Below, one piece after another: positions 1 through 12,565 of a stretch of DNA of 64,000 bases (the first letter of the stretch is position 1; the number at the start of each line of letters is the position of its first letter). The translations under genes and the position numbers were made by a program. The notes below the pieces were generated by a model that was given only the letters and a program-made list of their open reading frames with translations, made no database searches and was not told where the DNA came from. The stretch comes from Bacteroidota bacterium (lineage in GTDB: Bacteria > Bacteroidota > Bacteroidia > Chitinophagales > JADJOU01). The stretch spans positions 85,000-148,999 of the forward strand of contig JADJOU010000005.1 of assembly GCA_016713645.1 (NCBI GenBank), in the 5' to 3' direction.

Positions 1-2311
1 CTGGTGGCGTAATAGAAATGGTATTATTCATAATTCTCGCTCTATATAGGAAGGTATTATTTGTAATATACAAACCATAAATGGTACCTGTTCCTAAGAA
101 ATTACCTCCAATCATATTGTTGGAAATTTCAAAACTATCAGAACCATTGAATCCTCCAGCTTGACCTGGACTTAAGAAATAAACCCCATAGGTTCCAGCA
201 TTATTGATTTTATTGCTTTTGAACTCAAACCCATCCCAATAATAAGCCAAAATTCCATAGTTAGATGTAACAGCAGATGGACTCATGGTAAAGGTATTCC
301 CATTGAATTTAATTCCATGTTGATAATACATATAACAACCATACTGATACATCCCTGTACAAATATTATTGGTAATCACATTCGACTCCGCTTGTGAGCC
401 AGTCGAATTACTCCATCCAATAGATACAATTGCATAGTAACCGCCAGTAATGGTATTGCTATCGATGGTATTGTAATCTGGAATATTTGCCACTGATGTA
501 GGGAAAGTCGTTACACTGGTTCCCAAACCATTCATGGCTATACCGCAATTTCTTGTATCTGTCATTGAACCCGTGATGACAATATTATTTCCTTTAACCG
601 TATTGCTATCAGAACCATTGCACAAGTTAAAACCTACACCCCAATTAGGGTCTAAAGTTCTTACTGTCATATTCTTCAAGGTGATCCACTTCGCACCAAT
701 CAAACGGAATACATGAGAAGATCCTTGAGATCCCCCTTGGAATTCTACTGTTTCTTTGGTCGCTCCTCCATTAATTGTAATTGTATTGGTTGGTGAAGAT
801 CCTGGGACAATTCCGTTGAAGATATTTTGCTCAACATAAGGGCCCGTTCCAGAAACGATATTGAATGTAACTGGACCACTGATACCACATGAATAAATCG
901 CATTGATTGCAGAGGCAATCGATGGGAAATTAGTCGCACTTATAGGAGAAGTCTTATCAATTGTAAATGTACCGGCAATGCTTGAACAATAAATATTGTA
1001 CAAGGAATCATTGCTCGTATTGTTATCTGCACTAGCATTTGGTGCACTTGTGAATATCAGCATGGTATTAAATCCTGCCACAAAAGTCTGACCAGGGAAA
1101 GTAATCGTCACCGTATCACAAGCATTCAAAGTTCCTGGCAAAGTTAGCGTCGTTGGTGTTCCATTCAATACTAGCGTTACATCGCCTGTTAACAAAGAAT
1201 TAGAGCCTGTATTTCTAACTCTTACTCTTATATCCGTTGTACCTGGTGTAATAGACAAAGTAGCAGGATTTAAAAGAGAATCAATACCCAAGTCATTGGT
1301 CACTGCTACAGCCTCATCCGCACCAATCGTCGTTGTACCACCTCTCGATTGCTCATCCATATCTGTTGTGATTCCAACATTAGGTGCTAAACCAGCACAG
1401 ATAAATGAAGAATTCACATGCAAATTGCTCGTAGAGACAAATCCTGGATTGGCATACTTAGAATTAATACCAAGACCTGTTGGCCATGCTGTACCTAAAT
1501 TTGCTTGAGTCATAATAGTACCCGCCCTATAAGCCAAGCTACCAGATGCGACATTATAGAATATATTGTAATCCATCGAATCTACATAAGTAGTAGATGA
1601 AATGTACAATGGATAATGCAAGGAACCATTCGTATTGGTACAAGCGAATATGTTATTCTTAATCGTATTATTCGCTCCAAAACTTACATATAAACCATAT
1701 GCATTCGAATTGTTATTATTCAAATTGTATGAATTGTGGAAGATATTCCAATTGGAATTCGTCGCACTAATCATCGTCAAATAAGTTGTAGCTGAAGCAA
1801 AATTAATGCCTCTTGAGAAGGTGTTATTTGCCAAGACATTTTTATTAGGTGCTGGATTACCTGCTCCAATTAAGTATGCTCCATAAGAATACAATGAATC
1901 AAAACGATTGTTAATAACTTCATGGAAATTAGGACTACTTGGACTACCTGACAAATAGAATGCATAGTGAGTGGTTTGACCTATTGTTCTCACTCTAAAG
2001 CGCATTGCGTTATTCTTAAATTTCATTACACAATTACTAGGTGCGTAAACACCCATGTAATATAAATTATCGAAATCATTATTTCTCAAATTCGTAACAT
2101 GGTTGCCATTATTTACATAGTTGGTAACCACATAATAAGCAAAATGTAAAATACTTGAATCACAAGTAAATGGACCAGTTCCAGAAGTATAGGCTCCTGT
2201 TATAGATGCTGTACTTCCGTTGATGACAATTCTACTCAACGTAGAACCTGGTGTCGCATTGAAGAATTGATTCAAGGTGTCTCCGATGATACACTTATTG
2301 AAACCGACAGG
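1..2311 (-). CDS. beta-helix/CARDB surface protein, piece 5 (partial, runs off the window edge)
   Basis: Minus-strand frame read by eye from 2311 to 1 with no stop seen; frame register confirmed at 2311, 988, 340 and 2. It starts PVGFNKCIIGDTLNQFFNATPGSTLSRIVING and contains ITTDMDEQSRGGTTTIGADE. It also contains the module-6 cap CSSIAGTFTIDKTSPISATNFPSIASAINAIYSCGISGPVTFNIV (TGT at 986-988). It is absent from the ORF track, presumably because it has no stop inside the window. Confidence 0.7.
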
Positions 2312-5300
2312 TCACAATTAAGCGCATGTACGTTCCAAGCAACACTTTGGTTAGAACTCAAGATACTCAAGTTTTTAAAGTAGATGTGTGAAGTACCACT
2401 CAAACGAATAATGTACTCACTACCTGGACCCGTAAAGAAATTAATACTTCTCGTATTTCTATCTACTCCATCAAAAGTAACTGTATTCACAGCAGATGAA
2501 CCTGGAATCAAAGGAATCACAATCTGCTCATAGTATGAACCAGGAGCTACTGTAAATACAACAGGACCAGAAATTCCACAACCCGTCATAGCAGCAACCG
2601 CCGCAGTGAATGATTGGTAGTTCACACTGCTCGCAGGCAAACTCGCATTGATTGTCATCGCACCAGAAAGACCAATACATCCATTGATATTAAATGAATC
2701 ATTCGCAATTCTAGAATCAACCACAGTGCTTGGACTATCGGTCCAAGTCTTAATTGTAATAGCTCCTGGAGCAAAGGTATATGGAGTTGTAAATGTAACT
2801 GTATCTGTTGCACATAATCCCAAAGAACCTGTCCATGCTTGTTTCACCTCAGTACCATTGATATTGTAATATACATTGGCAGAAGTTACGGTATTTGTTC
2901 CAAAGTTTTTCAATAAGACTTTGATGGTTTGTGAACCAGCAGAGGCAACTCCATTTGGAGGGTATATAAGACTAGCTATTCCTATATCATTATTTCCACC
3001 CAAGTGATCACAACCTGCTTGTGAAGTTCCACAACGTGGTAAATTATCAATATCATCCACTATCATCGGATGTGTATTGATTGTATACGCTGGAGAAGAA
3101 CCTGTTAAATGAAGATTTGTATTAGATACAAAATTTGGATTGCTGTGAATTGAAGCTAAATCTCTCGTAGGCATAGCCGCTTTCCAAGCTGCAAAAGTTG
3201 CATAGGTTGTACCATTAGATCCAAATGTCGCACCCGTAGTATAATATATATTGCTATCTACACTATTTGCAGAAGGAGAATAAATACATGCATTACCCCC
3301 TGATACTGCAAAAATATTGTGTCTAATCGTATTTGGTGATGATGGCAAATAAGCTGAATAATAGGTTCCTACTAAACTACTTGCAGCCATCGTCGAGTTA
3401 TTGTAGACATTCCAGTTACCTCCAGAGAGATAAAGCGGGTAACACGTGGAAGAACCACCTACCATAAGCATATTATTGTTACACTGACTGCCCGCGGCTA
3501 CTGTATTGGTATTGTATATACCATAACCGCCATTTGGATTCAAAACTTTATTCTTATTAAAGTATTGTAACATCGAACTTGATGAAGTACAATAAATTCC
3601 GTAGAAATTAGTATACGAAGTATTCGTTGTAATGGTGTTACCGCTCATTACAACTGGATTTCCAGAGCTATTCGCCCATGTATGGTAAATCCCCGCATAA
3701 TATTGATTATTCATCGTGTTATTGGTAAACACAACACCATAGTTGTATCTAGCTGGCGCAGTTAAGATGATACCGATTGATCCATTGTTCATCGTACAAT
3801 TAGTAACCGTATCGCGATAATTATCTCCCGTAGCACCTTCCGCCATATCTACACATGCATGTGATGGAGAAGCTGTTAATGTTGAAGTAGATGCAGTTGT
3901 ATTGAATACACAACCCTCGACCTTATTATCTCTTGCATCGAAAATAATCTTCAACAAACCACCCCAAGTCGCGTTCGTTGTTGTGAATGTCATATTTCTC
4001 AACTTGATAAAGTCTGCACCATTCAAGAATAAGATATGATTATTCGCATATGAAGTTTGTCCGTTAAAAGTCAAAGTGACATTTGCTGGATTTCCAGAAG
4101 CCGATTGAATTGTCAAAGGAGCAGAAGCGCTTACCCCAGAGATTGGTGTTAAAGTCCACTGTCCTGTATAGGTTCCATTGGCAATATTTACTGTCGTTGC
4201 AGCGCTAACACCACAAGAATTCAACTTAGCAATCATTGCATCGATGGTTTGGAAATTCGTACTTGATGCAGGTAATCCAGCATCAACGGTATAAACTCCC
4301 GCCATCGCACCACCGCACAAGTAAGAATTCAAAGTATCATTCAATTGATATCCATCTGTTGTTCCGTTTGGATTTGATGTGAAAGAAATTAAGGTATCAT
4401 TATTACCAGTATTGTTATACTGCATCGCACCAGTAAAAGTTACATTCGTAGAAGCATTAGGAGCCAAAGTTCCAGTCCAACCAATCGTATGCAATGTACC
4501 CAAGTTTCCAGCTTTATAGCTCACATCCGCAGAGGTAATCGCCACCAATCCGAAATTCTTAAAAGTAACTGTAACATCTTGCAATCCACCCGCTGGGAAT
4601 TGAGTAGGAGCGACTAAAGCTGTTACCCCAATATTCTCTGCCGGAGGTGTAAATTCATCTGCTCTAATATCAACGGTACCACCACCGATAGGTCTTGTAT
4701 CCCCATCAATATCTGTTGTGACAAAAGTATTGACCCCAACATCATTCAATGTAGGTGCAAAAGTATGCAAATTTGACATTGGATTGATCAATTGCGGATC
4801 TACATTAAGACAAGAAGAAGTATTTTGACCGCTAATGGCTGGGCCTATCCATGTATTACCTGTATAAGCGGTTGTACCAAATACAATTGGCGATGCACCC
4901 GCATTATCTGTCCATACATCATTATGGCTAAATGAAGTTGAATTCAAGAATGGATTGACTGTAAAATAAGAATACAAGGCATATGACCCACTTGTATTTC
5001 CATAGTTAAAGAAAATATTATTCTTCATTTCATTGCCTGTATTCCAAGTATTTGTATTATAGAAGTATACATAATACCCTCCTGTATTGCTTCCTTGACC
5101 GACGGTATTATGGAAGTAATCACAATTTCTGGAATAATACCAAAAAGCCGGATAAGCATAAACTAAACTACCTTTTCTAGCTCCACCTATCATATTATTG
5201 GAAACTTCACTTCTCGAAATCTCTGTTCCATTATTAAACGCATTTCCTAAATTTTGCAAATACATCCCTGAATAATAGAAATTATTAATTTTATTCTTTC

Positions 5301-6075
5301 TGATATGCGTATAATCACAATACTGCACATTCATACTATAATAACTCGTTGAGTTAAATACACAGGTATCGATTGTATTTCCAGTGATTTCACTTGAGTC
5401 ATAACAATACACATTTATACCATGCGCATACGTATTGGTAATAAAGTTATTGATAATACTCAATCTCTTGCCCATATTGGCTGGAGTTGTTACGCCTGAA
5501 CCATTTCCATAAGCCGTGATTCCATAAAAACCCCCTCTGATTCTATTGCCCATCAACAATGTCGTTCTGGCATTAAAACCTGTGCCTGTAACGGATGTTC
5601 CATTTGATGAAATCGCAATACCTGCAGAATTACTAGCAGATGTTGAAGCTAAATTGATATTACAGTCTTGAATTGTATTTGAATCAGCATTTGTCGTCAA
5701 AAATACTCCTGCACAAACAGTAAGACTTGGATTGTTAATTGTCAAATTCTTGAACACAAGATTTCGTGCATTGACAATTCTAATAACCGCTTGCTGATTG
5801 CTTATCGTCGTATTGAACCAGATCATCTCTTTCGTTCCTCCTCCATCTACAGTGATTTTATTAATGGAATTCATTCCCGTGATTGGACCATTGATGACCA
5901 ATTGCTCGTTATAAGGACCAGAGCCTGGAACGACATTCAACGTCACCGCGCCTGCAACTGTTCCCAATCGAATCATCGAGAAGGCTTCATTGAAAGAAGT
6001 AAAGTTGGTCGTGCTCAATGGTTGATTTTTGTTGATTGTATACACCCCTGAATAAGGCAAAGTATAGGTGTACAT
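2272..6075 (-). CDS. beta-helix/CARDB surface protein, piece 4 (modules 3, 4 and start of 5)
   Basis: 1267-aa ORF with three module caps: YSGVYTINKNQPLSTTNF, CGGAMAGVYTVDAGLPASSTNF and CIGLSGAMTINASLPASSVNY. Contains TTDIDGDTRPIGGGTVDIRADE and CARDB-like segments (VTVTFKNFGLVAITSADVSY; IKVLLKNFGTNTVTSANVYY). The tail LNCDLSVSISVSSETP is out-of-frame sequence after a frameshift near 2315-2322. Confidence 0.75.
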   Translation of the reverse strand: MYTYTLPYSGVYTINKNQPLSTTNFTSFNEAFSMIRLGTVAGAVTLNVVPGSGPYNEQLVINGPITGMNSINKITVDGGGTKEMIWFNTTISNQQAVIRIVNARNLVFKNLTINNPSLTVCAGVFLTTNADSNTIQDCNINLASTSASNSAGIAISSNGTSVTGTGFNARTTLLMGNRIRGGFYGITAYGNGSGVTTPANMGKRLSIINNFITNTYAHGINVYCYDSSEITGNTIDTCVFNSTSYYSMNVQYCDYTHIRKNKINNFYYSGMYLQNLGNAFNNGTEISRSEVSNNMIGGARKGSLVYAYPAFWYYSRNCDYFHNTVGQGSNTGGYYVYFYNTNTWNTGNEMKNNIFFNYGNTSGSYALYSYFTVNPFLNSTSFSHNDVWTDNAGASPIVFGTTAYTGNTWIGPAISGQNTSSCLNVDPQLINPMSNLHTFAPTLNDVGVNTFVTTDIDGDTRPIGGGTVDIRADEFTPPAENIGVTALVAPTQFPAGGLQDVTVTFKNFGLVAITSADVSYKAGNLGTLHTIGWTGTLAPNASTNVTFTGAMQYNNTGNNDTLISFTSNPNGTTDGYQLNDTLNSYLCGGAMAGVYTVDAGLPASSTNFQTIDAMIAKLNSCGVSAATTVNIANGTYTGQWTLTPISGVSASAPLTIQSASGNPANVTLTFNGQTSYANNHILFLNGADFIKLRNMTFTTTNATWGGLLKIIFDARDNKVEGCVFNTTASTSTLTASPSHACVDMAEGATGDNYRDTVTNCTMNNGSIGIILTAPARYNYGVVFTNNTMNNQYYAGIYHTWANSSGNPVVMSGNTITTNTSYTNFYGIYCTSSSSMLQYFNKNKVLNPNGGYGIYNTNTVAAGSQCNNNMLMVGGSSTCYPLYLSGGNWNVYNNSTMAASSLVGTYYSAYLPSSPNTIRHNIFAVSGGNACIYSPSANSVDSNIYYTTGATFGSNGTTYATFAAWKAAMPTRDLASIHSNPNFVSNTNLHLTGSSPAYTINTHPMIVDDIDNLPRCGTSQAGCDHLGGNNDIGIASLIYPPNGVASAGSQTIKVLLKNFGTNTVTSANVYYNINGTEVKQAWTGSLGLCATDTVTFTTPYTFAPGAITIKTWTDSPSTVVDSRIANDSFNINGCIGLSGAMTINASLPASSVNYQSFTAAVAAMTGCGISGPVVFTVAPGSYYEQIVIPLIPGSSAVNTVTFDGVDRNTRSINFFTGPGSEYIIRLSGTSHIYFKNLSILSSNQSVAWNVHALNCDLSVSISVSSETP

Positions 6076-8575
6076 TCGTTCCTCCTCCTGTGAAAGTCGC
6101 TTGAATAGTAAATGATAATAAGGTATCGCTATAAGAACATGGCTGCAAATTCACCCCGAAAGACTGAGTCGTCGGCGCACCGCCATTGACTGTATAGTTC
6201 ATCGTCAATTGATTGATCGCGGTTGTTCCTGAATTTCTCACTCTGAAAGTCACCGTTGTAGGTAGACCTATCGTCACTGTTGTAGGAGCTGTAATTTCAT
6301 AGACACTTGCATCAAATGCATTGGTAGTCGTATACTCATCACAACCTCTATCTGGTGTTGCAGATCTAGCTGTTCCATCGAAATCTCCCAATAATGGCAA
6401 TTTAGAAGCATTATAAGCAGACCAAAATCCATTGTCCGCAGAACAAGATGCCTGAGTATGTAAGTCCGTTTTAGACGTAAAGCTCAATAATGAGCGGAAT
6501 GAACCACCAAATACTGCTGAATTTTCGCAATATCCATAAGTCACAACATTCGCTGCTGTTCTAAATGAATTGAATCCAACTTGCGTATTTACATAACCTC
6601 CGCCATTCCAAAACAAGAAAGTTCCCGAAGTGTTTGAGCCATAGACGTTATTGTTGTAATGCATCGAAGTCCCATTTGGATACAAATAAGCTGCATAACC
6701 CGAAGTAGTTGCTGTTCCACCCCCTGTATTCATAAAGATATTATTTCTAACGGTGTCACCTGTCATAAATGAACTAAAATAAGCTGCATAGGCAGACGTA
6801 TTCGGGGCAGTGATATTCACAGTATTGTAATAAATATCTAGATAATTACATGATGATATGAAATAAAGACCGTAAGATGTAGTTACAGCAAAATTACCAG
6901 TTATGGCAATCATATTATTGGTCACATACCCCTTATTTTGAAGAGATCCTGTTCCACTAGAATTCAATTGAGAATTATAAATTCCATAAAGCTGTTGGTT
7001 CGCATATGCCGATGTCAAGGTAATTTTATTGCCGACAATCACTGGTCTTCTAAAATTTCCACTCGTATAAATACCATAATTAGTTGTATTAGAATTATTA
7101 CAAGAAATCGTATTCCCTATGATGGCCACTGAGTCTTGGTAATAAGAGTAGATACCAGCATAATAATGGTTAATCAAATTATTCCCAATAAAGGCATTCC
7201 CTTGAGAATAAGTGCCATTGCTCAAAATCGTAGAACCTTGAAAATATATCCCCGCATATCCACCAGTCACCGTATTTCCTACTATTGTATTAAAGGTATC
7301 TCTTGAATTACTCTGGAAAAAACCATAGAAATTGAGATTCCCTGTAAATCCATTCAAGATACAATTAGAGATGGAATCTCTATGCGCTCCATTTCTAAAC
7401 CAAACCCCATAAGCAGTGAAATTGTAATTATTATTGATGGTAAATCTGTCAAAAGTCACCCAGTCAGCACCATTCAAATCAATCGCAGCGCTTGATGAAC
7501 TTACATTCGCATTGATAATACAAAGTGCAGGATTGCCAGAAGCAGATCTAAATCGAATATTGTTAGCAGCAGAGGCTCCAGTTATTTGAGGAAGAACGAC
7601 ATTCTCGTTATAGGTTCCATTGGCTACATTGAATGTGATTGGGCCATTGGCGCCTGCACAAACCAAAGCACTTGTTGCTGCCGCAAAACTGACAAAATTT
7701 GTCGGTCCAGAACCAGCAGGGTCAATCGTATAGGTTCCAGACATGGCACCGCATAAATTGAATTGAGCGGTATCATTATTCACCACAGAATCCATCGAGC
7801 CGTTTGGTGCATCCGTAAACACTTTGAATACGTTATTACCTGCAACCATGGTTGGATTTGTAGCAAAAGTATAATTCGTAGAAGCACATGGAGCCAATCC
7901 CAAAGCCACAATTGCTTCAGTCGTCGTTGCGCCATTATTGCTATAAGAAATATTCCCTGTATTCCATGTCGCCGTTCCATAGTTCTTAATCACCACTTGA
8001 CAAGGCGCGCCAGAACCCGGAATGATTGGAGAACCAGGAGTCGTAATAGAAACTACACCCACTTCATCTGCATAGCCACTGGTCGATTCATCAGCTCCAA
8101 CATCTGGCGTCGAACCAATTGCATCGCCATCGATATCTGTTGTTCTATACAAATTCGCTCCCAAACCCGTCGTGATTGAATTATTACAAGTTACACGTGT
8201 ATGCAAATCTGTAGCTGAAATATAATTTGGATTGGTATTCGTCGTATTGGCACCAATTCCCATCGCTGGGAATACCAATTTGTAATTGCTCGCAGTTGTC
8301 AATATCGTTCCGCCTAGATAAGCCATATTCGGCGGTGTCGCAGCGGTGAAGATATTATTGTAATCCATCGTATCGACATAGTTGGTCGAATTAGATTGAA
8401 TGTAAATAGGATAAGAAGTATAAGATCCTGGATTCGGGAAAGCGATATTATTTGCCCAAATTCTAACACTATTATTTGCTGCTCCAAAACCAACTACATA
8501 AATTCCATAACTGGTTGAACCGGCAAAATTATAGTTGATGCTATTATGGGCCACTTTCCAATAGGATGTTTGCAA
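5987..8575 (-). CDS. beta-helix/CARDB surface protein, piece 3 (end of module 1, module 2)
   Basis: 862-aa ORF containing TTDIDGDAIGSTPDVGADE and CARDB-like CQVVIKNYGTATWNTGNISY. Module-2 cap is CGAMSGTYTIDPAGSGPTNFVSFAAATSALVCAGANGPITFNV. Also has many x-YGIY coils and LGDFDGTARSATPDRGCDE. The last ~25 aa are out of frame and overlap the next piece. Confidence 0.75.
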   Translation of the reverse strand: MQTSYWKVAHNSINYNFAGSTSYGIYVVGFGAANNSVRIWANNIAFPNPGSYTSYPIYIQSNSTNYVDTMDYNNIFTAATPPNMAYLGGTILTTASNYKLVFPAMGIGANTTNTNPNYISATDLHTRVTCNNSITTGLGANLYRTTDIDGDAIGSTPDVGADESTSGYADEVGVVSITTPGSPIIPGSGAPCQVVIKNYGTATWNTGNISYSNNGATTTEAIVALGLAPCASTNYTFATNPTMVAGNNVFKVFTDAPNGSMDSVVNNDTAQFNLCGAMSGTYTIDPAGSGPTNFVSFAAATSALVCAGANGPITFNVANGTYNENVVLPQITGASAANNIRFRSASGNPALCIINANVSSSSAAIDLNGADWVTFDRFTINNNYNFTAYGVWFRNGAHRDSISNCILNGFTGNLNFYGFFQSNSRDTFNTIVGNTVTGGYAGIYFQGSTILSNGTYSQGNAFIGNNLINHYYAGIYSYYQDSVAIIGNTISCNNSNTTNYGIYTSGNFRRPVIVGNKITLTSAYANQQLYGIYNSQLNSSGTGSLQNKGYVTNNMIAITGNFAVTTSYGLYFISSCNYLDIYYNTVNITAPNTSAYAAYFSSFMTGDTVRNNIFMNTGGGTATTSGYAAYLYPNGTSMHYNNNVYGSNTSGTFLFWNGGGYVNTQVGFNSFRTAANVVTYGYCENSAVFGGSFRSLLSFTSKTDLHTQASCSADNGFWSAYNASKLPLLGDFDGTARSATPDRGCDEYTTTNAFDASVYEITAPTTVTIGLPTTVTFRVRNSGTTAINQLTMNYTVNGGAPTTQSFGVNLQPCSYSDTLLSFTIQATFTGGGTNVHLYFALFRGVYNQQKSTIEHDQLYFFQ

Positions 8576-8733
8576 TAAATTCCTGCTCCAAAACCTGTTC
8601 TAAATCCTGTGATCATATTATCATGGATAGACCCTTTAGCTGCCGAAGGATTTGTTCCGTTTTGAATATAAATTCCATAAGATCCCGCATTTTGAATATT
8701 GTTATTTCCAATTTCCATAGTCGTTGTAGTCAA
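8494..8733 (-). CDS. beta-helix/CARDB surface protein, piece 2 (short fragment)
   Basis: 79-aa ORF (TTG start) reading EIGNNNIQNAGSYGIYIQNGTNPSAAKGSIHDNMITGF, which is typical coil sequence. It is in the same reading frame as 8800..10422 (10422-8733 = 1689 = 563 codons). It shifts into the 5987..8575 frame near 8560-8575. Confidence 0.6.
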   Translation of the reverse strand: MTTTTMEIGNNNIQNAGSYGIYIQNGTNPSAAKGSIHDNMITGFRTGFGAGIYCKHPIGKWPIIASTIILPVQPVMEFM

Positions 8734-8799
8734 AGTACCACCACTTACAATAAATACCCTAAGTTCCAGTTGTCGTAGTTCTAGGGCTAATAAAATTGT

Positions 8800-10422
8800 T
8801 CAAAACTTTAAATCCCTGTGTTCACCTTGAATAAAGAATGGATAAATATATTGGTTGATAATTGTATTTCTGCTAAAAGTATTGGTATTAGCAACAGTCG
8901 TTACGGCAGATATAATTCCATAGTAATTGGCAAAGTCCAAATTATTACTATCGATATTACATTGATTCGTTGTTGTTCCGCCAGTCATGCCGCTAAAGTT
9001 TGAGGTTGCTCCACAAATTGCCAAACCAGAATAGTTTCCACTCGTACTCGCAGTTCCACCGATAGCATGTGCCGCTCCTCTATATTCCAATGCATTTCTT
9101 CTCACATTACAAGAAGTCGTTGCACGCAATTGAAATAAGATATTCGAAGAAGATGAAGAGGTCGCTTCTTCTCTTCTAATTTTGAAATTTCTAAAAGTGA
9201 CAAAACTACAATTCGCCAATAAGACGCCATAATAGTTTACAGAGTTAATCGCTAGTCTAATAATGGTATTCGACGTATCGGCACCTTGGATCGTCACCGT
9301 ATTTACTGCACTAGCACCCGGAATGGTAACTGTAATATTTGGATTCTCCCAATACGTATTTGCTGCAACATTGATTGTCGTCGCACCAGAAACTCCCGTT
9401 ACTTGAAGTGCATTGAGTGCATGTTGAATCGTTGGGAAATTTCTCGTTCCTGTCGTTGTTCTATCTACTGTATAGGAACCAGACATATTATTGATTGCAG
9501 ATGCAAAAAATGTAAACCAAACCAATGAGTCATTATTGACAGTTGGAGGAGCTACACCATTTACGGTTTCAATCCAAGTTTGAATTCTATTTACTTCACC
9601 AGAGACAAGGCCTGTCATCAATGTTGGAGAAGTAATCGCTAATTCGCTACCTACTGACCAGTTAGAAGCAATCGCTACAGTCGCTGTTGTCGGTGCTCCA
9701 CCGTTTACGCTATATCCTATAACCACATTCGAACCAGAAGGGACAACTGCCGTACCGATATTTCTAGCCCACAAACTAATTGCTGGCATATTTGTTATCG
9801 AAGCAAAATTTGCTGGCAAGTTTGAACGCGTAATTGCAGCGTCTGTTGTCGTTGCATTTTTAATCACGATTTGATAATCGATGACGACACCACTTGTTGT
9901 CAATGCACATGGCGAAGGATTGCCTCCTACATCCCCTGCAATTCTCAAGCGATATACTCCTGCAGGAACTCCGAAAGGAACATTGATTGTTCCCGCAGTA
10001 ACTGTTCCAGCCAATCCAATAACACCAGAATTGTGCATCAATTCACCCCCGTTATTTGGACCGACAAAAGCCGTCTCGTTGAATACACCATTCTTATTCC
10101 AGTCTACCCAAATTCGAACTCTTTCGTTCGCAACTGTATTCGTATATGAAAATGACATTGTTGACGAACCGGCATTCACGCCTCCCGCCAAAAACTGATT
10201 CATATTATCGAAATACACTTGGGTACCTGCACCACTATAAGCGGTATAAGTAGTTCCACCAAAAGCCATCGCACTAAAGCCTATACCAGTGGTATACCCG
10301 TTCGTCGTGATGTTTTTGCAATAGTTCAGAGACTCAGTATTGTTTTGTGCAATAAGCTGAACCCCCGACAGAATGAGACAAGCGCTGAGCATTGTCTTGA
10401 GGTAAGTAGAGAAATTTCCCAT
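8800..10422 (-). CDS. beta-helix/CARDB surface protein, piece 1 (signal peptide, GEVED-like domain, CARDB-like domain, module 1)
   Basis: Signal peptide at the N-terminus. GEVED-like segment YCKN..RIWVDWNKNGVFNE..GVYRLRIAG..PCALTTSGVVIDYQIVI. CARDB-like region at roughly aa 195-305. Cap MSGSYTVDRTTTGTRNFPTIQHALNALQVTGVSGATTINVAANTYWENPNITVTIPGASAVNTVTIQG. Confidence 0.75.
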   Translation of the reverse strand: MGNFSTYLKTMLSACLILSGVQLIAQNNTESLNYCKNITTNGYTTGIGFSAMAFGGTTYTAYSGAGTQVYFDNMNQFLAGGVNAGSSTMSFSYTNTVANERVRIWVDWNKNGVFNETAFVGPNNGGELMHNSGVIGLAGTVTAGTINVPFGVPAGVYRLRIAGDVGGNPSPCALTTSGVVIDYQIVIKNATTTDAAITRSNLPANFASITNMPAISLWARNIGTAVVPSGSNVVIGYSVNGGAPTTATVAIASNWSVGSELAITSPTLMTGLVSGEVNRIQTWIETVNGVAPPTVNNDSLVWFTFFASAINNMSGSYTVDRTTTGTRNFPTIQHALNALQVTGVSGATTINVAANTYWENPNITVTIPGASAVNTVTIQGADTSNTIIRLAINSVNYYGVLLANCSFVTFRNFKIRREEATSSSSSNILFQLRATTSCNVRRNALEYRGAAHAIGGTASTSGNYSGLAICGATSNFSGMTGGTTTNQCNIDSNNLDFANYYGIISAVTTVANTNTFSRNTIINQYIYPFFIQGEHRDLKF

Positions 10423-10960
10423 ATAGATGAATTTAATTTTTTAAAATTAGAAACTTCAAAAGTGTTTGCTAGAAAGAGTTACAGATAATTCGCTCTAAGC
10501 TTTTTTAGATAAAAAAAGCACTGAAAATGATAAATTTAGAACGAGTAAAAGTCTCTCAATAGTTAATTCTTTTAAAATTTGTAAAAACGAAAGTCGCTAT
10601 ATACAACGAGATTTCCAAATTTATTTTTAACTTTTTTTGATTTTTCTTGCACTTTTGTTGCGCGAAATACTCAAAATATTGTATTTCAACAACTTAAAGA
10701 GATGTCTTCCATTTAAAATAATCTTATCATTTGAAATGTTCCTTAACCATAACGTAAACTATTTCAGCTAAAATAGTTTAGTTTTTTGCCTAAATGAGCT
10801 TTTTTCTGCTTTCAACCGAACTAAACCAATTAAAAAATAAAAAATAAAATTGCGGTACGCGTTGCTTTACACCGAACCAAACCAATTAAAAAATAAAAAA
10901 GTAAAAATTAAAATTGCGCTGCGCGTTGCTTTACAACAAACCAATTCAACATTCAACATT

Positions 10961-11096
10961 CAAAATTCAAAATTCATAATGCCCTCAGCGAGGGGCGTTA
11001 CCACCTCGCTAGATGTATCTCGCCCCTCCAGGGCTCAAATTCCGTGAAGAACTAGGATTTGTTGTGCTTAAACTGAACCAATTCAAAATTCAAAAT
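10961..11096. repeat. repeat unit 1 (core)
   Basis: Sequence caaaattcaaaattcataatGccctcagcgaggggcgttaccacctcgctagatgtatctcgcccctCcagggctcaaattccgtgaagaactaggatttgttgtgCttaaactgaaccaattcaaaattcaaaatt. Hairpin H1 is AGCGAGG 10987-10993 / CCTCGCT 11004-11010. Hairpin H2 is CAAATTCC 11036-11043 / GGATTTG 11055-11061. Confidence 0.9.
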
Positions 11097-11135
11097 TGCG
11101 CTTCGCCTTGCATTCAACCAAACCAATTCAACATT

Positions 11136-11268
11136 CAAAATTCAAAATTCATAATTCCCTCAGCGGGGGCGTTACCACCTCGCTAGATGTTCTGCCCCTT
11201 CAGGGCTCAAATTCCGTGAAGAACTAGGATTTGTTGTGCTTAAACTGAACCAATTCAAAATTCAAAAT
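11136..11268. repeat. repeat unit 2 (core, most degenerate)
   Basis: Same core with three 1-nt deletions (cagcgggggcg; gatgttctgcccc) that weaken H1. Confidence 0.9.
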
Positions 11269-11304
11269 CCCGATTCGGCCCTTGTGCATTCAACCAAACC
11301 AATT

Positions 11305-11441
11305 CAAAATTCAAAATTCATAATTCCCTCAGCGAGGGGCGTTACCACCTCGCTAGATGTATCTCGCCCCTTCAGGGCTCAAATTCCGTGAAGAACTAGG
11401 ATTTGTTGTGATTAAACTGAACCAATTCAAATTTCAAAATT
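11305..11441. repeat. repeat unit 3 (core)
   Basis: Core identical to unit 4 from ccctcagcg to ttcaaaat. Confidence 0.9.
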
Positions 11442-11472
11442 GGGGCCTTGCATTCCAAACCAATTCAAAATT

Positions 11473-11608
11473 TAAAATTCAAAATTCATAATTCCCTCAG
11501 CGAGGGGCGTTACCACCTCGCTAGATGTATCTCGCCCCTTCAGGGCTCAAATTCCGTGAAGAACTAGGATTTGTTGTGATTAAACTGAACCAATTCAAAT
11601 TTCAAAAT
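11473..11608. repeat. repeat unit 4 (core)
   Basis: Core identical to unit 3. Confidence 0.9.
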
Positions 11609-11661
11609 CCATAATTCATAATTCAATTGGAGCTCTGTTGTGCATTTCACCAAATCAAACC

Positions 11662-11696
11662 AATTCAAAATTCAAAATTCAAAATTCAAAATTTAA
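11662..11696. repeat. (AATTCAA)5 heptamer microsatellite abutting and overlapping the DUF4112 stop codon
   Basis: aattcaa aattcaa aattcaa aattcaa aatttaa read directly. Shorter runs of the same heptamer flank every core. Confidence 0.9.
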
Positions 11697-12166
11697 AACC
11701 CGCCGTATACAAATTCAGCCAGCTGAATAAGCAATAAAGCGAAGACATAAAGCAATGCAGTAGAAAGGAGAAATGCGACGAACAAAATTGACATTAAATA
11801 GCCCATTCCCGACCCCTGATGTGCGCCATCGTTAAAGTGACGCTCTAATAATGCAAGATTTCGATTATTTGCCTTATAAACAAAGTCAAATATTTGTCCT
11901 ATAATTGGGATAGACCCGATGATATAATCGACCAAAATATTCATCAACATCTTTATGATTACTTTTCCACTTGCCCCGGCGCGAATGGCCATCAACAGCA
12001 TGACTCCACCAGCGATAAACCCCGTAAATGAGCCTATGAAGGGCAACAAATTCATCAATGGATCAATGCCAAATCGATACTTCGTTCCAAAAAAAGAAAA
12101 CTGAGAATCCAACAAGCGCGCCCATGATTGAATGGCTTTCAATTGGGGAGAATTGTAATTGCGCAT
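11693..12166 (-). CDS. DUF4112 domain membrane protein
   Basis: LLDSQFSFFGTKYRFGIDPLMNLLPFIGSFTGFIAGGVMLLMAIRAG matches the DUF4112 signature from memory. Two or more TM segments. Confidence 0.75.
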   Translation of the reverse strand: MRNYNSPQLKAIQSWARLLDSQFSFFGTKYRFGIDPLMNLLPFIGSFTGFIAGGVMLLMAIRAGASGKVIIKMLMNILVDYIIGSIPIIGQIFDFVYKANNRNLALLERHFNDGAHQGSGMGYLMSILFVAFLLSTALLYVFALLLIQLAEFVYGGF

Positions 12167-12178
12167 TTTATATATTTA

Positions 12179-12565
12179 TCAATTCATTTTTTCCAAACTC
12201 GACAAAATAAATTTTGGAATTTCGACTTCAAATAATTCCTCAGTCACCAAATTCCTAAATTGATAATGTCCCTCCATACTTCCCAAATCGGATAATAAGT
12301 CGCAGCCGCTGACATATTCATAGGCATGGCTGGGATAGATGATGGGCATTTCCCCAATCACGCCCTGTCCTTCCACAATAGATGTATGTCCTGCAGAATC
12401 AAAAATTTTCCAATATCTACTCAATAATTTGATGGGAAAATCGTTGTGATTGGCAATACTTATCCTATACGCGAAAAGGTAACGCACAAATTCATCCTCT
12501 TCTATTTCCTGCTGAAAGCGCGTCAGGACGGATATCTTGACACCATTTGTTATAAGCGTTGACAT
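12179..12565 (-). CDS. apaG: ApaG (DUF525) protein
   Basis: 128 aa containing TNGVKISVLTRFQQE..YLFAYRISIANHNDFPIKLLSRYWKIFDSAGHTSIVEGQGVIGEMPII..YEYVSGCDL..GSMEGHYQF, which is the canonical ApaG pattern. Confidence 0.85.
   Translation of the reverse strand: MSTLITNGVKISVLTRFQQEIEEDEFVRYLFAYRISIANHNDFPIKLLSRYWKIFDSAGHTSIVEGQGVIGEMPIIYPSHAYEYVSGCDLLSDLGSMEGHYQFRNLVTEELFEVEIPKFILSSLEKMN

Follow-up and report, generated by a model that had tools for sequence, protein, structure and literature searches.

A tandem array of divergent Acido-Lenti-1 elements, probably REP-like DNA repeats, beside a DUF4112 gene in a Bacteroidota bacterium

The DNA analysed here, called the window throughout, comprises 64,000 nt of contig JADJOU010000005.1 (assembly GCA_016713645.1) from a Bacteroidota bacterium. 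Between a DUF4112 gene and an adhesin-like surface-protein gene, both on the - strand, it holds a tandem array of four units, each with a GC-rich core. The first 47 nt of each core, read on the + strand, form an element made of a hairpin 1, a conserved linker and a hairpin 2; the family of this element is Rfam RF01687 (Acido-Lenti-1), and we read the array as repetitive extragenic palindromic (REP)-like DNA. We read the array region directly and located its repeats with Tandem Repeats Finder (TRF). The features are listed below, with scores from RF01687 and from R1, a covariance model of the family described further on.

10951..11608, + strand: tandem array of four core-bearing units (TRF, unit alignment, 135-bp exact identity of units 3 and 4)
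10989..11035, + strand: REP-like element copy 1 (R1 46.2 bits, E 2e-10; RF01687 13.3 bits)
11164..11207, + strand: REP-like element copy 2, decayed (R1 21.8 bits, E 5e-4)
11333..11379, + strand: REP-like element copy 3 (R1 53.3 bits, E 3e-12; RF01687 15.3 bits)
11501..11547, + strand: REP-like element copy 4, same sequence as copy 3 (R1 53.3 bits; exact repeat)
11325..11332, also 10981-10988, 11156-11163 and 11493-11500, + strand: 5' extension (T/G)CCCTCAG
11380..11405, also 11036-11061, 11208-11233 and 11548-11573, + strand: 3' tail of the core, CAAATTCC..GGATTTG, outside the family motif
11402..11427, also 11058-11083, 11230-11255 and 11570-11595, + strand: scaffold segment TTTGTTGTG(C/A)TTAAACTGAACCAATT following each core
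10806..10946, + strand: core-less scaffold, a terminal subunit (10806-10831) plus two subunits, with TAAAAAA runs between
10849-10887 and 10913-10946, + strand: the two core-less subunits, ATTGCG..GCGTTGCTTTACA..AACCAATT, preceding the array
11630-11665 (within 11630..11698), + strand: scaffold subunit on the DUF4112 side; the syntenic loci L002 and L003 carry the same subunit type
11662-11698, + strand: heptamer run overlapping the DUF4112 stop codon (TRF and direct reading)
11693..12166, - strand: DUF4112 gene (Pfam PF13430, E 1e-30), immediately 5' of the array in the direction of transcription
12179..12565, - strand: ApaG-domain gene (Pfam PF04379, E 1e-27)

The units repeat with a period of 168-175 bp, and TRF reports a single array (period 168-172, 3.8-3.9 copies, 89-90% matches, score >1000), about 85 bp of DNA separating the DUF4112 stop codon from its start. 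Core GC content reaches 44-49% against 24-32% in the flanks, and runs of the heptamer AATTCAA, eight in the TRF output, border all cores on both sides. These runs are unique to this intergenic region: all 19 heptamer matches in the window fall inside 10943-11694. Both halves of the core are also confined to the array within the window, where shuffles lead one to expect 0 matches; a 34-mer of the hairpin 1 half hits three cores out of four, and all four are hit by a 35-mer taken from the other half. A preliminary description, made from the sequence alone, had reported the four-unit array with its GC-rich cores and heptamer flanks, and TRF, GC content and pattern counts bear it out. Its two core-less subunits are present before the array, and the identity that it saw between cores 3 and 4 holds as an exact 135-bp run shared by units 3 and 4 (11306-11440 = 11474-11608, offset 168). 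ARAGORN found no tRNA or tmRNA in the window. The AT-rich scaffold, too, is built of degenerate repeats, of the form ATTGCG-nnn-CGC..TTGC(A/T)TT(C/T)A..CCAAACCAATT, which contain a small palindrome, GCG/CGC (10849-10887, 10913-10946, 11091-11128, 11263-11304, 11435-11465); they are also found in core-less relatives.

What are the cores? The preliminary description recognised no known RNA family in them and suggested an Rfam search. At curated gathering thresholds, Rfam gave no match over the entire window; in a relaxed search, three cores weakly matched RF01687 on the + strand at 13.3-15.3 bits, below the gathering score of 37, and unit 2 gave no match. The low score is due to two 1-nt insertions, one an A that bulges from the 3' arm of hairpin 1, the other an additional A within the linker; with these two insertions, all blocks of the RF01687 architecture align, in the Rfam consensus as in the R1 alignments. 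We reached the relatives that make up R1 by DNA patterns taken from the window cores. A 19-mer of hairpin 1, scanned over one genome per species, hit a single locus (L001, from a Saprospiraceae metagenome-assembled genome, or MAG), which holds a 64-bp tandem array plus other copies on both strands, several of them scoring 40.4 bits, above the gathering score. A metagenome scan with GATGTATNNCGCYCCTTCAGRGCT, the pattern common to L001 and the window, yielded 18 further loci; together with L001 they contain 30 copies above the gathering score. Alignment A2 and model R1 were built from 36 distinct copies, none of them from the window. Run over both strands of the window with filters off, R1 scored the cores at 53.3, 53.3, 46.2 and 21.8 bits (E 3e-12 to 5e-4) and found nothing significant outside them. 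Judged by architecture, sequence and this broadened model, the window cores are divergent members of RF01687, though below the Rfam threshold, and do belong to a known family.

The cores resemble the family in their two hairpins, a conserved linker of 12-13 nt (GCU.R..UAU..CG; element consensus CT(A)GATGTATnnCG), a UUC-type loop in hairpin 2 (GCCCC-TTC-AGGGC in the element, conserved in the family) and a trailing CU, and also in being multi-copy and often tandem, with periods of 64-200 bp. They differ by two additions not present in the family, a 5' extension (CCCTCAG) and a tail of 24 nt, and in their host: the family was described from Acidobacteria and Lentisphaerae, whereas the window copies lie in Bacteroidota, with the closest match in a Saprospiraceae MAG. 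The bulged A of hairpin 1 is common to the window, one L001 copy and the loci L023 and L031, the closest relatives, in which the 5' extension also occurs, as CCCCT(T/G)AG. The window shares 5' CCCTnAG with these two loci and differs from them by a compensatory change from G-C to T-A at pair 4 of hairpin 1.

As the four window copies are too alike for a covariation test of their own, support for the helices comes from relatives. In A2, pairing holds in 88% of cells and both partners change in 8 of 13 pairs; none of 500 shuffles reaches the observed score and no shuffled or slid register comes near it. Hairpin 1 (AGCGAGG/CCTCGCT) is also present in the minimum-free-energy folds; the H1 of the preliminary description, for which a covariation check had been proposed, is therefore real and is the family's first hairpin. 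Its H2, formed by CAAATTCC and GGATTTG in the tail, is not supported (DNA fold -1.4 kcal/mol, z -0.19 against shuffles, no homologue in the collections and loci searched), and its alternative pairing CCCT..GGGGCG / CGCCCC..AGGG, in which it had included the family's hairpin 2 (GCCCC-TTC-AGGGC) as an arm, is not kept in L023 and L031. Nor can the tail be read as an inverted partner copy that has decayed: R1 matches on the - strand reach just 10.9 bits and overlap hairpin 1. On neither strand does the fold of a whole unit beat shuffles (z -1.35 and -0.75). Copy 2 has a 1-nt deletion in a hairpin 1 arm and a linker damaged by indels, and its fold is no better than shuffles. The preliminary description placed the array on the transcribed (minus) strand, on which the two neighbouring genes run; the family motif itself reads on the + strand, antisense to both. 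Folded as DNA, the element reaches -9.6 kcal/mol on the - strand and -8.7 kcal/mol on the + strand.

RF01687 was described in 2010 by Weinberg et al. from Acidobacteria and Lentisphaerae (PMC2864571) as a probable RNA with covariation, not cis-regulatory and sometimes near group II introns. In a 2026 preprint, copies adjoin Tannerella protease genes and a regulatory role is guessed at. How does the family behave in genomes? R1 finds 80 copies in 19 loci, all intergenic, as arrays of up to 11 or as inverted pairs, and across these loci orientation is mixed both inside single clusters and relative to neighbouring genes. Tandem stacking is a family trait, as the 2010 seed alignment already contains tandem runs from Lentisphaera (spacings of 74, 110-115 and 192-200 bp). 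On the strand annotated by Rfam, A.C mismatches outnumber G.U pairs by 31 to 9 in A2 and by 38 to 8 in the seed alignment; 19 seed sequences have an A.C in the middle of hairpin 1 (RF01687, PMC2864571, supplement 183). On the opposite strand these mismatches turn into G.U or G.T wobbles. The excess does not fit an RNA made from the annotated strand and fits a DNA element or a fold of the other strand; possibly RF01687 is annotated on the wrong strand or the element works as DNA.

The positions L031:1408-1523 and L023:8393-8438 are one locus in two related metagenomic genomes, just past a canonical terminator; L031 has an additional inverted copy that is absent in L023, an insertion polymorphism of the element. 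Likewise, L001, L019 and L021 are one Saprospiraceae locus from three assemblies, at which a 64-bp-period array adjoins a Y1 nuclease gene in the manner of a REPtron; nine direct and two inverted copies stand in L021, and the L001 and L019 assemblies are cut at the array.

The L001 gene lies between inverted copies. We predicted beforehand that this open reading frame (ORF) would encode a Y1 transposase, and Pfam then confirmed it: L001:603-1055 encodes a 150-aa Y1_Tnp protein (E 1.6e-24), with copies facing the gene from both sides. The same arrangement recurs at L030, an unrelated GC-rich locus, around another Y1_Tnp protein (L030:942-1466, E 1.2e-21), 44% identical to that of L001 over its full length. 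We then picked four test loci by protein homology alone, from Spirosoma sp. KCTC 42546, Salinimicrobium xinjiangense, a Saprospiraceae MAG and a Cyclobacteriaceae MAG. In these 4-6.5-kb loci all strong R1 matches fall within ~450 bp of the Y1 gene and none elsewhere; of the copies nearest to the gene, the one upstream is antisense and the one downstream sense, with downstream copies only in L036, and some flanking copies exceed the RF01687 gathering score (e.g., 48.5 bits in L036). Inverted copies around a single HUH/Y1 gene, by which a REPtron is recognised, were thus found at six independent loci (L001, L030, L033, L034, L036 and L038). At two of them a type I restriction-modification operon houses the Y1 gene with its flanking elements, which separate hsdS from hsdM or hsdR: L033:2700-3650 in Spirosoma sp. 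KCTC 42546 and L038:2900-3600 in the Cyclobacteriaceae MAG.

Which nuclease is this? In seven Y1 proteins the motifs DH[VI]H, YI..Q.EHH (Y---Q--HH) and a C-terminal ..E(Y/F)DE(R/K)YVWD are invariant or nearly so, and the protein matches Pfam Y1_Tnp and NCBIfam transpos_IS200. The label "REP element-mobilizing transposase RayT" that JGI gives to homologues is presumably a generic COG label for Y1 transposases, and we gave it no weight. To judge from their sequences, the associated proteins match TnpAY1 subclass 1.2 of PMC6006769, named matches coming from Bacteroidota. That subclass, described in 2018, occurs mostly in Bacteroidetes and Cyanobacteria, at low copy number and without insertion sequence (IS) properties (PMC6006769). 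A sequence search of the PDB retrieved the IS200, IS608 and ISDra2 transposases weakly (E 2e-4 or weaker) and no match to E. coli TnpAREP, consistent with class 1 rather than class 2. No link between subclass 1.2 and Acido-Lenti-1 was found in the literature searched, and queries combining REP-associated tyrosine transposases (RAYTs) with Lentisphaera returned only irrelevant matches.

The family shares with REPs, bacterial interspersed mosaic elements and REPtrons (TnpAREP/RAYT; PMC3333891, PMC8266576, PMC6006769) its short imperfect palindromes, intergenic position, high copy number and direct or inverted clusters, as well as inverted copies flanking a single HUH/Y1 gene and a presence that varies between strains. 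It departs from them in having two hairpins plus a conserved single-stranded linker, and in an associated protein of class 1 (subclass 1.2, Y---Q--HH) instead of the class 2 TnpAREP (Y---NP). With the IS200/IS605 elements it has in common a Y1 HUH transposase of ~150 aa and subterminal hairpins of the kind recognised as single-stranded DNA. Here, however, the hairpin elements around the gene are inverted, whereas both IS200 ends lie on one strand; the copies far outnumber the gene and form gene-less arrays, and subclass 1.2 is described without IS properties. Miniature inverted-repeat transposable elements (MITEs) are similarly small, non-coding, non-autonomous and strain-variable, but our element is a hairpin pair and not a unit bounded by terminal inverted repeats. 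A MITE in the strict sense can be set aside, no terminal inverted repeats bounding the core and no consistent target-site duplications being present. A direct repeat, CCCCT(T/G)AG, flanks the L023 copy only, and neither the L031 nor the window copies.

We reached the same locus in relatives through DUF4112 homologues. The closest complete syntenic locus, L006 (91% identity in the DUF4112 protein), has the same gene order and heptamer runs and no core. It keeps both core-less subunits and a scaffold segment, TTTGTTGTGCTTAAACTGAAC; the core-less scaffold at 10806..10946 is identical to it at 120 of 125 and 35 of 36 positions, and the window has ~720 bp extra (10975-11692), with heptamer runs at both bounds. 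Since TTTGTTGTG(C/A)TTAAACTGAACCAATT, the segment following each core, is also found in this core-less relative, we assign it to the AT-rich scaffold rather than to the inserted element. L007 (72% DUF4112 identity) has neither heptamers nor cores, and R1 found no copy over L002-L007. Six contigs from strains at 89-94% identity end 0-140 bp past the DUF4112 stop, inside repeats, as expected where short-read assemblies fail to resolve tandem repeats; the array explains why the assemblies of related strains break right after DUF4112. The repeat layout visible in L002 differs from that of the window. The window array is a recent local amplification that varies between strains. One unit compared by blastn with plasmids and phages gave no match, and viral contigs scanned with family-wide and window-specific patterns gave 0 matches.

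We conclude, with a probability of about three in four, that the array consists of locally amplified REP-like elements, selfish or neutral DNA most likely, and is neither a set of RNA genes nor part of the adhesin leader. How could it have arisen? By analogy with E. coli TnpAREP and IS200/IS608 (PMC3333891, PMC3479197, PMC8266576), a subclass 1.2 nuclease would bind the folded hairpin in single-stranded DNA, and would then cut and rejoin near the conserved linker, seeding copies at new intergenic sites. One element may have inserted in the AT-rich heptamer tract downstream of DUF4112, after which unequal recombination between the flanking heptamer runs, or slippage between them, would have amplified a ~170-bp segment to four units. 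If neighbouring genes are affected, for instance through hairpins in transcripts that read through, this would be incidental, and the array would probably serve no dedicated function; the decay already under way in unit 2 speaks against each copy being under strong selection. Among the options of the preliminary description, a satellite or MITE-like repeat comes closest to the evidence: the family is dispersed and orientation-independent and L006 lacks the cores, although terminal inverted repeats and target-site duplications are absent.

Several points weigh against this conclusion. Neither strand of the consensus has the GT[AG]G tetranucleotide at the hairpin foot, so that the element would be an atypical REP; we liken it to the atypical cases of subclass 2.6 and class 3 (PMC6006769). 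The same survey reports subclass 1.2 without REP sequences and generally without the terminal secondary structures typical of IS200 (PMC6006769), and our association of element and nuclease comes from six loci found in this analysis. Within the window, tblastn finds no Y1 nuclease gene, and no copy of the element lies beyond the one cluster of four. L006 is a short-read metagenome contig and may skip an array through shared heptamer repeats, as an assembly shortcut. Finally, covariation does not separate DNA hairpins from RNA hairpins, and Rfam, which types RF01687 as Gene; sRNA, and the authors of the motif rate it a probable RNA.

The region between the array and the adhesin-like gene bears on the remaining explanations. 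Its features are:

8800..10422, - strand: first open segment of the adhesin-like gene, 540 aa, with a GEVED domain
10423..10660, - strand: putative conserved promoter and leader of the adhesin-like gene, with TAAATTTG at 10616-10623

The surface-protein gene on the far side of the array (GEVED/CARDB) starts at 10422. The 238 nt before its ATG are free of repeats and share 91% identity with L007 and 98.7% with L006; the DUF4112 and ApaG coding sequences, at 76-82% identity to L007, stay below the leader's 91%. We take TAAATTTG to match the Bacteroidetes -7 box TAnnTTTG. Region 10423-10660, which has no Rfam match, looks like a strongly conserved promoter plus a long leader (~185 nt). The array is upstream of this promoter and leader, not inside it, and the nearest repeat ends ~185 bp upstream of the putative -7 box. 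A structured leader, one option of the preliminary description, is accordingly disfavoured, the conserved leader being downstream of the array.

Could the units be tandem genes for small structured RNAs (sRNAs) of the Acido-Lenti-1 type, read from the + strand, antisense to the neighbours? The Rfam typing and the authors' rating speak for it, as do the covariation of both hairpins in A2 and sigma-70-like sequences (TTCAAA/TCAACA-N16-17-CATAAT) before three of the four cores and, as a fourth match, after the last one. Promoter-like matches, however, number 9 where shuffles give 6.2 +/- 2.4, the Bacteroidota promoter TAnnTTTG is absent from the + strand here, and no terminator-like site was found. 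Copies on both strands in single clusters and in inverted pairs around a nuclease gene also count against RNA genes, and the excess of A.C over G.U on the annotated strand (31 vs 9; 38 vs 8) is the opposite of the RNA expectation. Moreover, unit 2 is without the most conserved linker and the closest complete syntenic locus is without cores. We consider sRNA genes very unlikely, and the tandem small RNAs of the preliminary description are weakened: the hairpins stand, but the mixed orientation, the decay of unit 2, the A.C excess and the failure to find a promoter or terminator tell against transcription as discrete units.

A role in cis, on the - strand, would be compatible with a REP origin and does not exclude it: the hairpins may have been co-opted as a 3' stack that stabilises or attenuates the apaG-DUF4112 transcript and insulates the adhesin promoter from read-through in a copy-number-dependent way. 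E. coli REPs have established effects of this kind (summarised in PMC3333891 and PMC3733652). The array lies suitably, starting ~85 bp past the DUF4112 stop and ending upstream of the conserved adhesin promoter and leader; the element folds no less stably on the - strand than on the + strand (-9.6 vs -8.7 kcal/mol, as DNA), and A.C mismatches become G.U pairs on this strand. Yet no U-tract directly follows the hairpins, relatives at 91% and 72% DUF4112 identity have no cores at the locus, and the orientation of the family relative to neighbouring genes is mixed, so we regard co-option as unlikely; an insulator between the DUF4112 operon and the adhesin promoter whose effect depends on copy number is speculative. 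A scan of 10300-12300 returned 0 sites of GC-rich hairpin plus U-tract on either strand, and AATTATGAATTTTG, which follows hairpin 1 on the - strand, is no terminator tail by the criteria of the scan; the terminator stack that the preliminary description had considered finds no terminator-like site. The heptamer and 170-bp repeats might instead be a phase-variable satellite whose copy number switches adhesin expression, since a surface-protein gene has simple-sequence heptamer runs and a tandem array upstream of it and the repeat layout differs between strains. With ~185 bp between the nearest repeat and the putative -7 box, 238 repeat-free nucleotides before the ATG that are 91-99% conserved, and the same leader in L007 without any repeats, we hold such a switch to be extremely improbable.

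The REP-like reading deflates expectations for this locus: most likely the array is repeat DNA rather than a new family of RNA genes or a riboregulator of the adhesin. The Acido-Lenti-1 family and REP-like repeats were known already, and the window array is a divergent and fairly ordinary addition to them. The link between RF01687 and subclass 1.2 reaches further. We think it rather probable that RF01687 is a REP-type DNA element with TnpAY1 subclass 1.2 as its cognate nuclease, that the two together form an atypical REPtron class, and that the window array is an amplified offshoot of it; the proposed class, previously unrecognised, would be characterised by two hairpins, a conserved linker and the lack of GTAG. 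An orphan Rfam "sRNA" family and an orphan Y1 subclass would then seem to be the two components of a single REP-like system in Bacteroidota. If this is true, the annotation of RF01687 needs correction, for example where copies beside Tannerella protease genes are read as possible regulators, and subclass 1.2 nucleases gain a candidate substrate.

The adhesin-like gene was described at first as one gene of >10 kb. In the window (2-10440, - strand) it is not a single ORF: four stop-free segments follow one another in alternating frames (10440->8803, 8599->5990, 6150->2275 and 2311->2), and the L007 homologue is one ORF of at least 2235 aa. The split suggests frameshifts, whether the gene is a pseudogene or the sequence contains errors. 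At ~10757-10785 a 9-bp inverted repeat, AAACTATTT..AAATAGTTT, stands between array and adhesin promoter; L006 and L007 keep it with a different loop, and it may act as an operator or mark where the upstream transcript really ends.

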